The notes under the pieces were generated by a model that saw only the letters and a list, made by a program, of their open reading frames with translations, was not told where the DNA came from and ran no database searches. From assembly GCF_036507355.1 (NCBI RefSeq), contig NZ_AP027877.1: a stretch of 64,000 nt of DNA, one strand, 5' to 3'. Positions within the stretch are counted from its first letter, which is position 1. The number at the start of each line of letters is the position of its first letter. A program made the translations under genes and the position numbers. The stretch is from Escherichia coli. GTDB taxonomy: Bacteria > Pseudomonadota > Gammaproteobacteria > Enterobacterales > Enterobacteriaceae. Positions 5,748-33,667 of the stretch are shown in pieces.

Positions 5748-6242
5748 TTAATGTGTATTTATCGCTTTCAACTCTTGCTGGCATTTTTCTGACTGGCAGC
5801 GTCGCAACTCAATAATCCCGACATGCATCATCGAGCCAATAAAGCCGCTTTCGCTGACATAATCCTCATTAACTATCGGTCGAGTGCCGGGCTTGCCCTG
5901 GCAAACCAGCATAAAAAATGAGGTGTAGCACTGCCAGCCGGGATTTAAACCGGCTTTTTCTTGTGCTGACATATCGTGAAGATAAATAAGTTCTTTTTCG
6001 TTCCCGCCTGACAACTGCCAGCGGCGGGTATTATCAGGTAAGTTATCGCTACAACAATTTGTCTTACACCGGGAAGGCGCAATATTTACCGCAATGCTAC
6101 CCTTTAACCCTCTGGTTTTATCTTTAGGGGTCAGTAACCAGTCGCCAGCTAATGATGATTGTTCAGGTTGGGCACATGCAGTCAGCAGTAGTGTGGCGGC
6201 AATGAATGTTACTCTTACGACCAGACTCCTTTTGGTCTTCAT
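5748..6242 (-). CDS. ybfP: Small lipoprotein YbfP (164 aa)
   Basis: ORF 5748..6242; signal peptide with lipobox LLTAC-A; family member recalled from E. coli. Confidence 0.85.
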   Translation of the reverse strand: MKTKRSLVVRVTFIAATLLLTACAQPEQSSLAGDWLLTPKDKTRGLKGSIAVNIAPSRCKTNCCSDNLPDNTRRWQLSGGNEKELIYLHDMSAQEKAGLNPGWQCYTSFFMLVCQGKPGTRPIVNEDYVSESGFIGSMMHVGIIELRRCQSEKCQQELKAINTH

Positions 6243-6293
6243 TTTGAATTCCCTTGAGCTATTCAGTTTGTTGGCAAAGTGCGCGTTGTTTTT

Positions 6294-22358: not shown

Positions 22359-24023
22359 ATGTGTTCAATTTTTGGCGTATTCGATATCAAAACAGACGCA
22401 GTTGAGCTGCGGAAGAAAGCACTCGAGCTGTCACGCCTGATGCGTCATCGTGGCCCGGACTGGTCCGGTATTTATGCCAGCGATAACGCCATTCTCGCCC
22501 ACGAACGTCTGTCAATTGTTGACGTTAACGCGGGGGCGCAACCTCTCTATAACCAACAAAAAACTCATGTACTGGCGGTAAACGGTGAAATCTACAACCA
22601 CCAGGCATTGCGCGCTGAATATGGCGATCGTTATCAGTTCCAGACAGGGTCTGACTGTGAAGTGATCCTCGCGCTGTATCAGGAAAAAGGGCCGGAATTT
22701 CTCGACGACTTGCAGGGCATGTTTGCCTTTGCCCTGTACGACAGCGAAAAAGATGCCTACCTGATTGGTCGCGACCATCTGGGGATCATCCCACTGTATA
22801 TGGGCTATGACGAACACGGTCAGCTGTATGTGGCCTCAGAAATGAAAGCGCTGGTGCCAGTTTGCCGCACGATTAAAGAGTTCCCGGCGGGGAGCTATTT
22901 GTGGAGCCAGGACGGCGAAATCCGTTCTTACTATCATCGCGACTGGTTCGACTACGATGCGGTGAAAGATAACGTGACCGACAAAAACGAGCTGCGTCAG
23001 GCTCTGGAAGATTCCGTTAAAAGCCATCTGATGTCTGATGTGCCTTACGGTGTGCTGCTTTCTGGTGGTCTGGATTCCTCAATTATTTCCGCTATCACCA
23101 AGAAATACGCAGCCCGTCGCGTGGAAGATCAGGAACGCTCTGAAGCCTGGTGGCCGCAGTTACACTCCTTTGCTGTAGGCCTGCCGGGTTCACCGGATCT
23201 GAAAGCAGCCCAGGAAGTGGCAAACCATCTGGGCACGGTGCATCACGAAATTCACTTCACTGTACAGGAAGGTCTGGATGCCATCCGCGACGTGATTTAC
23301 CACATCGAAACCTATGATGTGACCACTATTCGCGCTTCAACACCGATGTATTTAATGTCGCGTAAGATCAAAGCGATGGGCATTAAAATGGTGCTGTCCG
23401 GTGAAGGTTCTGATGAAGTGTTTGGCGGTTATCTTTACTTCCACAAAGCGCCGAACGCTAAAGAACTGCATGAAGAGACGGTGCGTAAATTGCTAGCCCT
23501 GCATATGTATGACTGCGCCCGTGCCAACAAAGCGATGTCCGCCTGGGGCGTGGAAGCACGCGTTCCGTTCCTCGATAAGAAATTCCTTGATGTGGCGATG
23601 CGTATTAACCCACAGGATAAAATGTGCGGTAACGGCAAGATGGAAAAACACATCCTGCGTGAATGTTTTGAGTCGTACCTGCCTGCAAGTGTTGCCTGGC
23701 GGCAGAAAGAGCAGTTCTCCGATGGCGTCGGTTACAGTTGGATCGACACCCTGAAAGAAGTGGCGGCGCAGCAGGTTTCTGATCAGCAACTGGAAACTGC
23801 CCGCTTCCGCTTCCCGTACAACACGCCGACCTCAAAAGAAGCGTATCTGTACCGGGAGATCTTTGAAGAACTGTTCCCGCTTCCAAGCGCCGCTGAGTGC
23901 GTGCCGGGCGGTCCTTCCGTCGCGTGTTCTTCCGCTAAAGCGATCGAATGGGATGAAGCGTTCAAGAAAATGGACGATCCGTCTGGTCGTGCGGTTGGTG
24001 TTCACCAGTCGCCGTATAAGTAA
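22359..24023 (+). CDS. asnB: Asparagine synthetase B, glutamine-hydrolysing (554 aa)
   Basis: ORF 22278..24023; ATG at 22359 gives MCSIFGVFDIK... (N-terminal catalytic Cys of class II amidotransferase); SGGLDSS PP-loop. Confidence 0.96.
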   Translation: MCSIFGVFDIKTDAVELRKKALELSRLMRHRGPDWSGIYASDNAILAHERLSIVDVNAGAQPLYNQQKTHVLAVNGEIYNHQALRAEYGDRYQFQTGSDCEVILALYQEKGPEFLDDLQGMFAFALYDSEKDAYLIGRDHLGIIPLYMGYDEHGQLYVASEMKALVPVCRTIKEFPAGSYLWSQDGEIRSYYHRDWFDYDAVKDNVTDKNELRQALEDSVKSHLMSDVPYGVLLSGGLDSSIISAITKKYAARRVEDQERSEAWWPQLHSFAVGLPGSPDLKAAQEVANHLGTVHHEIHFTVQEGLDAIRDVIYHIETYDVTTIRASTPMYLMSRKIKAMGIKMVLSGEGSDEVFGGYLYFHKAPNAKELHEETVRKLLALHMYDCARANKAMSAWGVEARVPFLDKKFLDVAMRINPQDKMCGNGKMEKHILRECFESYLPASVAWRQKEQFSDGVGYSWIDTLKEVAAQQVSDQQLETARFRFPYNTPTSKEAYLYREIFEELFPLPSAAECVPGGPSVACSSAKAIEWDEAFKKMDDPSGRAVGVHQSPYK

Positions 24024-24030
24024 GAAATGC

Positions 24031-24063
24031 GAAACAGCCCCGGTGAAATCCGGGGCTGTTTCA
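24031..24063 (+). terminator. Rho-independent terminator of asnB
   Basis: aaacagccccggtgaaatccggggctgtttcag: perfect hairpin with flanking A/T runs. Confidence 0.8.
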
Positions 24064-24333
24064 GTTATTGAGGTGCTTGTTGATTCTGATATGCAGTAAG
24101 GAAATGTTCCGGGTTTGCCACATCACTGTTTGACAACTCATCACTGTAGGCCAGTATTTCATAGATTAATTTCCCACCACTATTGTTTAATTCCGAATTT
24201 CATCCTGTATGACAAAAGAATGGCTGTAGGGTGGGAAAAAACACAAAGTAAACAATAATTGACGAATATAGCGCCACGCTGTTCGCAACCTAACCAAACA
24301 GTCACTTTCGAGCAATTTTCCTTGAAAAAGAGG

Positions 24334-24362
24334 TTGACGCTGCAAGGCTCTATACGCATAAT
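24334..24362 (+). promoter_or_regulatory. Candidate sigma70 promoter of the tRNA operon with a GC-rich discriminator
   Basis: -35 TTGACG (24334..24339), 17-bp spacer, -10 cATAAT (24357..24362), then gcgcccc; about 40 nt upstream of metT. Confidence 0.55.
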
Positions 24363-24402
24363 GCGCCCCGCAACGCCGATAAGGTATCGCGAAAAAAAAG
24401 AT

Positions 24403-24479
24403 GGCTACGTAGCTCAGTTGGTTAGAGCACATCACTCATAATGATGGGGTCACAGGTTCGAATCCCGTCGTAGCCACCA
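24403..24479 (+). tRNA. metT: tRNA-Met (anticodon CAU, elongator)
   Basis: GGCTACGTAGCTCAGTTGG...CGTCGTAGCCACCA; cloverleaf with anticodon loop cuCAUaa; encoded CCA. Confidence 0.95.
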
Positions 24480-24487
24480 TCTTTTTT

Positions 24488-24572
24488 GCGGGAGTGGCGA
24501 AATTGGTAGACGCACCAGATTTAGGTTCTGGCGCCGCAAGGTGTGCGAGTTCAAGTCTCGCCTCCCGCACCA
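24488..24572 (+). tRNA. leuW: tRNA-Leu (anticodon UAG), class II with long variable arm
   Basis: GCGGGAGTGGCGAAATTGG...CTCGCCTCCCGCACCA; anticodon loop uuUAGgu. Confidence 0.95.
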
Positions 24573-24595
24573 TTCACCAGAAAGCGTTGTACGGA

Positions 24596-24670
24596 TGGGG
24601 TATCGCCAAGCGGTAAGGCACCGGTTTTTGATACCGGCATTCCCTGGTTCGAATCCAGGTACCCCAGCCA
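24596..24670 (+). tRNA. glnU: tRNA-Gln (anticodon UUG)
   Basis: TGGGGTATCGCCAAGCGGTAAGGCACCGGTTTTTGATACCGG...CCCCAGCCA. Confidence 0.95.
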
Positions 24671-24704
24671 TCTTCTTCGAGTAAGCGGTTCACCGCCCGG
24701 TTAT

Positions 24705-24779
24705 TGGGGTATCGCCAAGCGGTAAGGCACCGGTTTTTGATACCGGCATTCCCTGGTTCGAATCCAGGTACCCCAGCCA
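24705..24779 (+). tRNA. glnW: tRNA-Gln (anticodon UUG), duplicate of the preceding gene
   Basis: Same sequence as glnU; the upstream spacer is also duplicated. Confidence 0.95.
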
Positions 24780-24794
24780 TCGAAGAAACAATCT

Positions 24795-24871
24795 GGCTAC
24801 GTAGCTCAGTTGGTTAGAGCACATCACTCATAATGATGGGGTCACAGGTTCGAATCCCGTCGTAGCCACCA
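24795..24871 (+). tRNA. metU: tRNA-Met (anticodon CAU, elongator), second copy
   Basis: Same sequence as metT. Confidence 0.95.
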
Positions 24872-24919
24872 AATTCTGAATGTGTCGAATATGTTCGGCA
24901 AATTCAAAAACCAATTTGT

Positions 24920-24994
24920 TGGGGTATCGCCAAGCGGTAAGGCACCGGATTCTGATTCCGGCATTCCGAGGTTCGAATCCTCGTACCCCAGCCA
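24920..24994 (+). tRNA. glnV: tRNA-Gln (anticodon CUG)
   Basis: TGGGGTATCGCCAAGCGGTAAGGCACCGGATTCTGATTCCGG...CCCCAGCCA. Confidence 0.95.
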
Positions 24995-25031
24995 ATTTAT
25001 TCAAGACGCTTACCTTGTAAGTGCACCCAGT

Positions 25032-25106
25032 TGGGGTATCGCCAAGCGGTAAGGCACCGGATTCTGATTCCGGCATTCCGAGGTTCGAATCCTCGTACCC
25101 CAGCCA
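25032..25106 (+). tRNA. glnX: tRNA-Gln (anticodon CUG), second copy
   Basis: Same sequence as glnV. Confidence 0.95.
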
Positions 25107-25110
25107 CATT

Positions 25111-25139
25111 AAAAAAGCTCGCTTCGGCGAGCTTTTTGC
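25111..25139 (+). terminator. Rho-independent terminator of the tRNA operon
   Basis: aaaaaagctcgcttcggcgagctttttgc: hairpin with TTCG tetraloop and T-tract. Confidence 0.8.
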
Positions 25140-25149
25140 TTTTCTGCGT

Positions 25150-25255
25150 TCATTCAATGTCGAATGCGATGTTGACACGTCTTATCCTTCAATGTCGGAT
25201 GCGACGCTGCCGCGTCTTATCCGACCTACGGTTGGCACGCATCCGGCAATGTTGT
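25150..25255. repeat. REP-like palindromic repeats (two related copies)
   Basis: caatgtcgaatgcgatgttgacacgtcttatcc / caatgtcggatgcgacgctgccgcgtcttatccgacctac ... gcatccggca. Confidence 0.65.
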
Positions 25256-25259
25256 AAGG

Positions 25260-26435
25260 CTACAACCCTAACGCATATTTCAGCGCCTGACGTTTCAACA
25301 CGCCAGCACGCTCCGCCGCCATCAAACCAAGATTACGCACAAAACGCAGCGGCGGCAGATTATTACTGAATCCGGCATAAAACAGATCCATACCGCTCTG
25401 CATAATGAAGTTATCCGCCATGCGCCGCATCTGGTAGCGCTTGAGGACAGGATAACTGGCCCACGCTTCGCCGTAGCTGCGGGCATTCACCAGAACATCA
25501 ATCAGGGCATCGACATCACGATAACCAAGATTCACCCCCTGCCCCGCCAGCGGATGGATGGTATGCGCGGCATCGCCCACCAGCGCAAGCCCTGGCTGCA
25601 CATACTGCAACGCATGGCGACGCGTCAGCGGAAACGCACCAGCGGCAAGCGGTGTAACGTAACCCAGACGCGACGGGAAATGCTTCGCGATTTCCGCCTG
25701 TAACTGCGCCATGTTCATATTCTGCAACTGGCGAATACGCGCCGGAGAGTCATACCACACCAGCGATGCCCAGTTATCAAACAACGGCAGAAACGCACGC
25801 GGTCCGTCCGGAGTAAATTGCTGCCAGGTGCTATCGCCGGGATCGTTCTCGCACTGGACGCTAATCAACATGCACGACTGCGCATACTGCCATGCATGAA
25901 CGCCAATTCCCGCCATCTGCCGCACCTGCGAATTTGCGCCGTCGGCACCAATCACCAGCTTCGCGCGAATCACTTCACCGCCTTTCAGCTCCAGCTCCTG
26001 AAGATCATTATCTCGATGTAATGCAATCAGCGAGGTTGGCACACGTAACGTTACTTTCGGATGCGCTTCCAGCGCCTGCCACAATGCCTGTTGCAGGACA
26101 GTGTTTTCTACCATATAGCCAAGCAACGGCAACTTTAATTCGGCTGCGTCAAATACCACATGCGCCGTTTCCCACTCCCACGTTTCCAGTCTGCGGTAAG
26201 GATGGCAACGCATAGCCTGTACTGCATCCCAGACCCCTAACCCTTTAAGCAATGATACCGAAGCCGCGCTGATCGCCGAGATCCGCACGTCCGGTTGGCT
26301 ATCAGCGACAAACGGTGCAGGTTCTGCGTGCTCGATCACCGTTACCGTAAATCCGTGCTGTGCCAGCCCCAGCGCCAGTGCGCCGCCGACCATTCCTCCG
26401 CCGACAATGGCAATTTCCGTTGGTTGATTTGTCAT
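25260..26435 (-). CDS. ubiF: FAD-dependent ubiquinone-biosynthesis hydroxylase UbiF (391 aa)
   Basis: ORF 25260..26441; ATG at 26435 gives MTNQPTEIAIVGGGMVGGALALG (Rossmann FAD motif). Confidence 0.93.
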   Translation of the reverse strand: MTNQPTEIAIVGGGMVGGALALGLAQHGFTVTVIEHAEPAPFVADSQPDVRISAISAASVSLLKGLGVWDAVQAMRCHPYRRLETWEWETAHVVFDAAELKLPLLGYMVENTVLQQALWQALEAHPKVTLRVPTSLIALHRDNDLQELELKGGEVIRAKLVIGADGANSQVRQMAGIGVHAWQYAQSCMLISVQCENDPGDSTWQQFTPDGPRAFLPLFDNWASLVWYDSPARIRQLQNMNMAQLQAEIAKHFPSRLGYVTPLAAGAFPLTRRHALQYVQPGLALVGDAAHTIHPLAGQGVNLGYRDVDALIDVLVNARSYGEAWASYPVLKRYQMRRMADNFIMQSGMDLFYAGFSNNLPPLRFVRNLGLMAAERAGVLKRQALKYALGL

Positions 26436-32589: not shown

Positions 32590-33498
32590 ATGCAATTACG
32601 TAAACCTGCCACAGCAATCCTAGCCCTTGCGCTTTCCGCAGGACTGGCACAGGCAGATGACGCCGCCCCGGCAGCGGGCAGTACGCTGGACAAAATCGCC
32701 AAAAACGGCGTGATTGTCGTCGGTCACCGTGAATCTTCAGTACCTTTCTCTTATTACGACAATCAGCAAAAAGTGGTGGGTTATTCGCAGGATTACTCCA
32801 ACGCCATTGTTGAAGCAGTGAAAAAGAAACTCAACAAACCGGACTTGCAGGTGAAATTGATTCCGATCACCTCACAAAACCGTATTCCTCTTCTGCAAAA
32901 CGGCACTTTCGATTTTGAATGTGGTTCTACCACCAACAACGTCGAACGCCAAAAACAGGCGGCTTTCTCTGACACTATTTTCGTGGTCGGTACGCGCCTG
33001 TTGACCAAAAAGGGCGGCGATATCAAAGATTTTGCCGACCTGAAAGGCAAAGCCGTAGTCGTCACTTCCGGCACTACCTCTGAAGTTTTGCTCAACAAAC
33101 TGAATGAAGAGCAAAAAATGAATATGCGCATCATCAGCGCCAAAGATCACGGTGACTCTTTCCGTACCCTGGAAAGCGGTCGTGCCGTTGCCTTTATGAT
33201 GGATGATGCTCTGCTGGCCGGTGAACGTGCGAAAGCGAAGAAACCAGACAACTGGGATATCGTCGGCAAGCCGCAGTCTCAGGAAGCCTACGGTTGCATG
33301 TTGCGTAAAGACGATCCGCAGTTCAAAAAGCTGATGGATGACACTATCGCTCAGGTGCAGACCTCCGGCGAAGCGGAAAAATGGTTTGATAAATGGTTCA
33401 AAAATCCCATTCCGCCGAAAAACCTGAACATGAATTTCGAACTGTCAGACGAAATGAAAGCACTGTTCAAAGAACCGAATGACAAGGCACTGAACTAA
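32590..33498 (+). CDS. gltI: Glutamate/aspartate ABC transporter periplasmic binding protein GltI (302 aa)
   Basis: ORF 32515..33498; ATG at 32590 preceded by AAGGAG; signal peptide MQLRKPATAILALALSAGLAQA. Confidence 0.93.
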   Translation: MQLRKPATAILALALSAGLAQADDAAPAAGSTLDKIAKNGVIVVGHRESSVPFSYYDNQQKVVGYSQDYSNAIVEAVKKKLNKPDLQVKLIPITSQNRIPLLQNGTFDFECGSTTNNVERQKQAAFSDTIFVVGTRLLTKKGGDIKDFADLKGKAVVVTSGTTSEVLLNKLNEEQKMNMRIISAKDHGDSFRTLESGRAVAFMMDDALLAGERAKAKKPDNWDIVGKPQSQEAYGCMLRKDDPQFKKLMDDTIAQVQTSGEAEKWFDKWFKNPIPPKNLNMNFELSDEMKALFKEPNDKALN

Positions 33499-33654
33499 TT
33501 ACAAGAACCAGGGGCGGAAATTCTAGCCCTCTCGATTGTTACGTAGCACGGACAGACTATACGCCTGATGGTCGTTCCCCATCGGGCCTGAAAACCGCAA
33601 TACGCTGGGTAACAATCTTCGAGGGTAGCAGTTAACGCTGCTACCCTCTTTTTT
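33499..33654 (+). ncRNA. sroC: SroC sRNA (GcvB sponge) processed from the gltI-gltJ spacer; 5' end approximate
   Basis: The 169-bp gltI-gltJ spacer ends in hairpin gagggtagcagttaacgctgctaccctc plus T6; sequence recalled as the sroC locus of E. coli/Salmonella. Confidence 0.7.
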
Positions 33655-33667
33655 CTGGAGTAGATTT

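Follow-up and report, generated by a model that had tools for sequence, protein, structure and literature searches.

A compact run of seven tRNA genes, in which three gene sequences each occur twice without a single difference, raises the question of how that identity came about. A first-pass annotation of the locus had argued that the array evolved by tandem duplication of whole units, pointing to a duplicated spacer between two of the copies. Here we consider what the array is, how it is expected to be transcribed and processed, how its length varies among strains, and whether its duplicates are old or recent. The DNA analyzed is a 64,000-nucleotide stretch of Escherichia coli contig NZ_AP027877.1, hereafter the window, and coordinates count from its first letter.

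Gene content and chromosomal position of the array

Across the whole 64-kb window, ARAGORN finds exactly seven tRNA genes, all on the plus strand at 24403–25106, a span of 704 bp that agrees with the approximately 700 bp given by the first-pass annotation. All seven encode their CCA end and score between 57.6 and 71.1 bits against the Rfam tRNA model (gathering threshold of 29). ARAGORN, Rfam, and the RefSeq annotation of an identical region concur on the order Met(CAU)-Leu(UAG)-Gln(UUG)-Gln(UUG)-Met(CAU)-Gln(CUG)-Gln(CUG) on one strand. The genes are as follows:

24403–24479, plus strand: metT, elongator tRNA-Met(CAU), CCA encoded (ARAGORN, Rfam, RefSeq annotation)
24488–24572, plus strand: leuW, tRNA-Leu(UAG) (ARAGORN, Rfam, RefSeq annotation)
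24596–24670, plus strand: glnU, tRNA-Gln(UUG) (ARAGORN, Rfam)
24705–24779, plus strand: glnW, tRNA-Gln(UUG), same sequence as glnU (ARAGORN, Rfam)
24795–24871, plus strand: metU, tRNA-Met(CAU), same sequence as metT (ARAGORN, Rfam)
24920–24994, plus strand: glnV, tRNA-Gln(CUG) (ARAGORN, Rfam)
25032–25106, plus strand: glnX, tRNA-Gln(CUG), same sequence as glnV (ARAGORN, Rfam)

As the first-pass annotation had stated, the copies are identical: metT and metU at 77 of 77 positions, glnU and glnW at 75 of 75, and glnV and glnX at 75 of 75. Between glnU and glnV there are seven differing positions, namely the anticodon base and three swapped, compensated stem pairs. Both metT and metU are elongator rather than initiator genes because positions 1 and 72 are paired (G1-C72). 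The operon name, gene order, anticodons, and boundaries assigned earlier also stand, since tRNA prediction with ARAGORN and Rfam returns no differing anticodon or boundary and the arrangement is identical in annotated E. coli chromosomes. Open reading frames that overlap the array were not taken as genes; they are mechanical and run across the tRNA genes.

The locus is nearly universal in the species. A 1101-nt operon region matches 5,424 of 5,426 complete E. coli genomes, with identity of at least 99% in 4,054 of them and of 100% across the 1101 nt in the best one, strain Res13-Sevr-PER07-33. In the annotated identical record, the array sits between asnB (upstream, same strand) and ubiF (downstream, convergent), and these neighbors are the same in every E. 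coli strain inspected. Further upstream are nag genes (nagD) and glnS, and further downstream is miaB-ybeZ-ybeY-corC-lnt. Two strains have an extra open reading frame that is absent from the window. The one in G12 (locus 1983–2420) lies between asnB and the promoter and encodes a hypothetical protein of 145 aa; the one in GN02461 (locus 1378–1962) lies between the terminator and ubiF and encodes a hypothetical protein of 194 aa.

Gene order, anticodons, flanks, promoter, and terminator are all like those of the K-12 metT-leuW-glnUW-metU-glnVX operon (b0664–b0673 region). The operon region of a K-12-derived laboratory strain, TUM22763, is 99.6% identical to the one here. The first-pass annotation had suggested comparing spacer lengths among strains, and against TUM22763 two spacers differ by 1 nt each, solely in homopolymer length: metT-leuW is 8 nt here versus 9 nt, and metU-glnV is 48 nt here versus 47 nt.

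We conclude, with a probability of about 97%, that the stretch is the long-studied and experimentally characterized metT-leuW-glnUW-metU-glnVX operon, an essential housekeeping transcription unit. It is the sole source of tRNA-Gln (both isoacceptors), elongator tRNA-Met, and tRNA-Leu(UAG). The operon, its suppressor alleles (supB and supE), its processing, and its essentiality are already textbook or published knowledge. We take it to be the unit historically called the supB-E operon and first sequenced in the early 1980s; a literature search on the supB-E name and on strings of conserved motifs returned nothing relevant. Other multi-copy tRNA arrays of E. coli, such as the lysT-valT-lysW-valZ-lysYZQ operon, are similar in being polycistronic, with repeated identical genes behind one promoter, and in being essential or nearly so. 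The lysT operon differs in its tRNA species, and its processing route is unlike that of argX, glyW, and other operons that depend on RNase E.

Transcription signals, leader, and processing

The following features flank the genes:

24281–24295, plus strand: upstream block GTTCGCAACCTAACC, a candidate FIS site centered at about −82 (species alignment)
24313–24333, plus strand: A/T-rich tract CAATTTTCCTTGAAAAAGAGG just 5′ of the −35 hexamer, UP-element-like (species alignment)
24334–24362, plus strand: sigma-70 promoter with −35 TTGACG (24334–24339), a 17-bp spacer, and −10 CATAAT (24357–24362) (promoter scan, species alignment)
24363–24369, plus strand: GC-rich discriminator GCGCCCC (read from sequence)
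24370–24402, plus strand: 33-nt 5′ leader, its start placed at G24370 (tyrT alignment, transcript design of PMC3985628)
25112–25146, plus strand: intrinsic terminator, an 11-bp hairpin (25112–25137) with a U-rich tail (terminator scan, folding)

The promoter hexamers match the consensus at 10 of 12 positions and form the only promoter-like site in 23800–25600. All 33 Enterobacterales in a species alignment share one −10 hexamer, and 32 of them have TTGACG at −35 (the remaining one has TTGACC); the spacer between the hexamers is variable. The discriminator GCGCCCC is invariant across the 33 species and is the same as that of tyrT in K-12. The T-run and the A-run of the tract at 24313–24333 are kept in the same alignment, and by analogy with rRNA and tRNA promoters the tract may act as an UP element. 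At the aligned position, the block at 24281–24295 fits GNNYRNNWNNYRNNC in 30 of the 33 species, although so loose a consensus is matched 1.8 times per region by chance. Published work reports a FIS site at this promoter (PMC9122604).

From the GC-rich discriminator, the A/T-rich tract, and the block with a FIS consensus, we infer growth-rate and stringent control (ppGpp/DksA), as of a stable-RNA promoter. The promoter of the first-pass annotation, TTGACG-17-CATAAT followed by GCGCCCC, is confirmed in its hexamers and its GC-rich discriminator, and the stringent type it was given is what these motifs suggest. The promoter of K-12 tyrT (tyrT-tyrV) is also of the stable-RNA type and, like metT, has ATGCGCCCCGC, then 4–5 nt, then CGATAAGG, a stretch that runs from the last part of the −10 hexamer through the discriminator into the start of the transcript; its −35, spacer, downstream leader, and tRNA cargo are unlike those of metT. 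The tyrT precursor begins pppGCUUCCC. By analogy with that start, metT transcription is expected to begin at G24370, giving a leader of 33 nt. This agrees with the design of an in vitro transcript, for which the primers start at CGCAACGCCGATAAGGTA and end just beyond the terminator (PMC3985628). The proposed picture is of a single sigma-70 promoter, its hexamers close to consensus and its discriminator GC-rich, that would direct transcription from approximately G24370 and would have an A/T-rich tract and a probable FIS site upstream of it.

Sequence conservation extends past the promoter. The block at 24357–24385, CATAATGCGCCCCGCAACGCCGATAAGGT, which runs from the −10 hexamer to approximately +16, is essentially invariant in the 33 Enterobacterales, from E. 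coli to Proteus. Three species depart from it by single substitutions, and outside the Enterobacteriaceae a G is inserted (1 nt). The block includes the first 16 nt of the leader, GCAACGCCGATAAGGT, and is partly common to metT and tyrT (GCGCCCCGC...CGATAAGG); the −35/−10 spacer and the later part of the leader vary among species. A stable conserved hairpin in the block was considered and rejected, as the fold is weak (−4.8 kcal/mol, z of −0.9) and the variable 3′ half has no consistent covariation by eye in the 33-species alignment.

The end of the leader has a potential partner on the other side of metT. Its last nine bases, AAAAAAGAT (24394–24402), are the complement of a stretch made up of A76 and the metT-leuW spacer, TCTTTTTT (24479–24487), and a helix of 7–9 bp is formed when these final nine bases, AAAAAAGAU, pair with A76 and the 8-nt spacer. 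Pairing is seen at 78.6% of positions over 66 distinct leader/trailer combinations, compared to 51–61% in shifted registers. When trailers are permuted among species, pairing is 71.2 ± 1.0% and none of 2,000 permutations reaches the observed value, a test that is inflated by the kinship of the species. Most Enterobacterales retain the pairing, with compensatory changes of which CAT/ATG, GTAT/ATAC, and TAGAT/ATCTA are examples. Compensatory variants are present in Tatumella, Edwardsiella, Hafnia, and Budvicia. These patterns are suggestive of a leader-trailer helix around metT that is kept by compensatory change. A shorter leader-trailer extension is seen at glnV, where 24913–24919 pairs with 24991–24997.

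That the invariant −10 to approximately +16 block and the metT helix are functional elements yet to be characterized is an outside chance; older literature may already describe either. If they are, the block might serve promoter escape, pausing, or protein binding, and the helix could govern how efficiently, or in what order, RNase P cleaves at metT.

At the other end of the array, the hairpin at 25112–25137 has 11 pairs followed directly by UUUUUGCUUUU and folds at −16.3 kcal/mol (z of −4.86), which bears out the strong terminator of the first-pass annotation. Five terminator-like sites were listed in 23800–25600, and this hairpin is the one at the end of the array; nearly all of the 33 Enterobacterales aligned have a terminator hairpin at the same place. 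The interval between the terminator and ubiF (25150–25225) holds a REP element with a clear copy at 25197–25222 and a degenerate 35-nt tandem partner at 25150–25184; the window has four more REP matches (5462, 5648, 6297, and 13689). On the upstream side, a 14-bp GC-rich hairpin (24030–24063) lies just 3′ of asnB and is scored as a minus-strand terminator; its stem is symmetric. It probably ends asnB transcription, approximately 270 bp upstream of the metT promoter, and would shield the tRNA operon from read-through. Rfam also reports two elements in the window that are unrelated to the tRNA array, the sRNA sroC (33494–33656, plus strand, 170.8 bits) and a cspA-type thermoregulator 5′ UTR (62792–63234, minus strand, 127.6 bits).

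Northern analysis has shown one full-length transcript with all seven tRNAs (PMC2241853). In the same study, RNase E takes off the terminator and separates the tRNAs that follow metU, separation of the first five falls to RNase P, and 3′ exonucleases complete the ends (PMC2241853). RNase E cleavage of the metT operon transcript has also been obtained in vitro (PMC3985628). The spacers here are, in order, 8, 23, 34, 15, 48, and 37 nt. The sequence fits the published RNase E route because the two longest spacers are those that follow metU and the first of them, at 48 nt, is clearly A/U-rich. For this copy of the operon, a transcript of approximately 770 nt is predicted to span all seven genes up to the intrinsic terminator. 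RNase E would remove the terminator and cut downstream of metU, where the spacers are long and mostly A/U-rich, RNase P would free the first five tRNAs at their 5′ ends, and 3′ exonucleases would trim to the encoded CCA.

The metU-glnV spacer is bimodal across 120 loci from a species survey (described below). It is approximately 40–50 nt in most genera of Enterobacteriaceae (E. coli, Citrobacter, Enterobacter, Klebsiella, and Kluyvera) and approximately 5–8 nt in Pantoea, Erwinia, Yersinia, Photorhabdus, and Pectobacterium. Because RNase E is reported to cut in the long form in E. coli, the processing route may differ between the two groups.

Deletion of the metT unit was possible only with a complementing plasmid (PMC11480407). 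Redundancy within the array allows one Gln copy to turn into a suppressor, with normal decoding left to the other. The laboratory strain TUM22763 carries the anticodon CTA in its seventh gene, which matches the published reassignment of supE44 to glnX (glnX44; PMC4444293).

Variation in array length within E. coli

The length of the array was gauged in 5,424 genomes with flank-only queries, using the match-joining distance as a ruler. Approximately 5,147 genomes (95%) have the standard length, 183 have a shortened array, and in 94 the flanks are further apart than standard. Among 60 shortened arrays listed, 32 are shorter by approximately 112 bp, 16 by approximately 109 bp, and seven by approximately 221 bp; five have other lengths. 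One glnV/X unit is lost in strain E24377A, and one glnU/W unit is lost in strain LY180. Expansions also occur. Strain G12 has an eight-gene array with three Gln(CUG) genes at a spacing of 112 bp, and strain CT29 has eleven genes, the result of a doubled 392-bp metT-leuW-glnU-glnW unit. The junction of the 392-bp duplication is found in at least approximately 10 genomes, including CT29 and Origami2(DE3); totals from the junction query are unusable because overlapping pieces are joined in normal genomes, and only top matches were used.

These patterns support the origin of six-, eight-, and eleven-gene versions by unequal recombination between identical copies. The same identity that characterizes the duplicates would permit such recombination to add or remove units in present-day strains.

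Some deposited arrays are not compatible with viability. Those of MC1061, GF47, HS13-1, AVS0947, and IPCEC48 have only one Met and one Gln gene. In CEA224S (NZ_CP166080.1; locus 6150–6250), all seven genes are absent without a scar, from one base before the 5′ end of metT to the 3′ end of glnX, and no repeat at the junction accounts for such an exact excision. Its other tRNA arrays are intact. Relocation of the operon was rejected, as there are no tRNA genes in the first 50 kb of plasmid pCEA224S and no other match in the chromosome. Matches of the operon to plasmids in general are mostly chromosomes or chromids mislabeled as plasmids. Because essential genes are missing, the Met-plus-Gln and empty arrays must be errors of assembly, and assembly artifact is the most likely explanation of the collapsed MC1061-type and CEA224S records. 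Since some assemblies designated complete show impossible arrays, part of the 183 shortened arrays is also attributable to assembly collapse.

This raises the possibility that all length variants in E. coli are artifacts and that the array is invariant. The records that lack essential unique genes, those of MC1061, GF47, HS13-1, and others with a Met and a Gln and that of CEA224S with none, are in keeping with it, as some of them are certainly wrong. We nevertheless consider it unlikely. The common variants retain all four tRNA species and differ by exactly one unit, one of them is carried by a genome of the Sanger era (E24377A), and expansions to eight or eleven genes cannot come from collapse. 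Copy number varies between species in a like manner. Unequal recombination, alongside a share of assembly errors, is thus the reading we retain. In practical terms, the locus is useful as a quality check on E. coli assemblies designated complete, as several deposited collapsed versions would be lethal.

Age and uniformity of the duplicated genes

To place the array in a wider context, one genome per species was surveyed for a tRNA-Met gene closely before a tRNA-Leu(UAG) gene, which yielded 120 loci from approximately 115 other species, nearly all Enterobacterales with some Alteromonadales. A backbone of Met-Leu-Gln(UUG)n-Met-Gln(CUG)n is general, with Gln copy number ranging from 1 to 4. The seven-gene form of E. 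coli is found at 33 loci (of approximately 115 species sampled), mostly in genera of Enterobacteriaceae. Six-gene forms have one Gln(CUG) at 27 loci and one Gln(UUG) at eight, and other forms have three Gln(CUG) or four Gln(UUG). The arrays of Yersinia, Serratia, Photorhabdus, and Pectobacterium have a single Gln(CUG), and those of several Erwinia, one Pantoea genome, and some others have a single Gln(UUG).

The first-pass annotation had described the glnU-glnW pair as including a duplicated spacer. No such duplication is present, as neither repeat finding nor shuffle-calibrated alignment gives anything above chance. In the repeat search, the family of Gln repeats reaches past the genes by only 2 nt on the upstream side and 3–5 nt on the downstream side. 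When the leader, the six spacers, and the trailer are aligned locally in all 28 pairings, with shuffles for calibration, no pair beats the shuffled controls after allowing for 28 comparisons. The leuW-glnU and glnU-glnW spacers have only TTCACC in common (P of approximately 0.10, uncorrected). Because the flanking spacers are unrelated, glnU/glnW and glnV/glnX are old duplicates.

A tandem duplication that took place recently within the E. coli lineage, and that copied gene and spacer together as the first-pass annotation had argued, would explain why gene copies are 100% identical. Fresh cases of this kind exist elsewhere, with identical spacers of 69 nt and 41 nt in Superficieibacter and Serratia silvae, and the third glnV/X unit of E. 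coli G12 is at the same 112-bp period. In the window, however, the spacers around the paired genes have no likeness beyond chance. The seven-gene order, moreover, is also that of Citrobacter, Enterobacter, Klebsiella, Kluyvera, Cedecea, and others, with spacer lengths that are similar and not identical. The duplications therefore predate the separation of these genera, and a recent origin is very improbable. Across species, a copied spacer of at least 6 nt is found in only six of 146 adjacent pairs of the same type, which indicates that most duplicates are old and a few are fresh. Five of the six are exact copies of the whole spacer (in Superficieibacter, Serratia silvae, and a Pantoea). The proposal of tandem unit duplication hence survives in its conclusion, with which variants among strains, Gln copy number among species, and fresh duplications agree, and fails in its argument, as the spacers are unrelated.

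The identical pairs are best viewed as old duplicates whose spacers have diverged fully while the genes stayed the same. Among 62 genomes with at least two identical copies of Gln(UUG), there are 14 distinct, lineage-specific sequences, and among 31 genomes with identical copies of Gln(CUG) there are 12 distinct sequences. Compensatory changes in stems are frequent among the lineage-specific Gln sequences. Identical pairs that are specific to lineages point to concerted evolution. The identity of the genes is best put down to purifying selection and, probably, to gene conversion rather than to cycles of loss and reduplication.

Arrays at the margins of the survey suggest how the backbone itself may have formed. 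Those of the Alteromonadales Glaciecola and Thalassotalea are only Met-Leu-Gln(UUG)2, without Gln(CUG), and those of Salinimonas and Budvicia are Met-Leu-Gln-Gln-Met-Leu-Gln. Both forms fit an old duplication of a Met-Leu-Gln-Gln unit, after which the second copy would have lost its Leu gene and changed its Gln anticodon.

An involvement of mobile DNA, with the array as part or marker of a mobile element or integration hotspot and its island lost or nearby, is next to impossible: tRNA genes are frequent targets of integrases in general and a few strains have small extra open reading frames adjoining the array, but there is no integrase or phage gene within 12 kb on either side (where the neighbors nagD, asnB, ubiF, and miaB are core genes) and no partial, att-like copy of a tRNA 3′ end outside the array in 24250–25250 (repeat search), locus length from flank to flank is standard or shorter in 5,330 of 5,424 genomes, and asnB-array-ubiF synteny is held in every E. 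coli examined. The first-pass annotation was correct that no integrase or island is attached, and the same is true across the population, but this absence carries no weight.

Old duplication followed by homogenization remains the reading that we favor for the metT operon. Unrelated spacers around identical copies indicate ancient duplicates maintained as one sequence rather than recent duplication, and the array is a small natural case of change in tRNA gene dosage by unequal recombination within a species.
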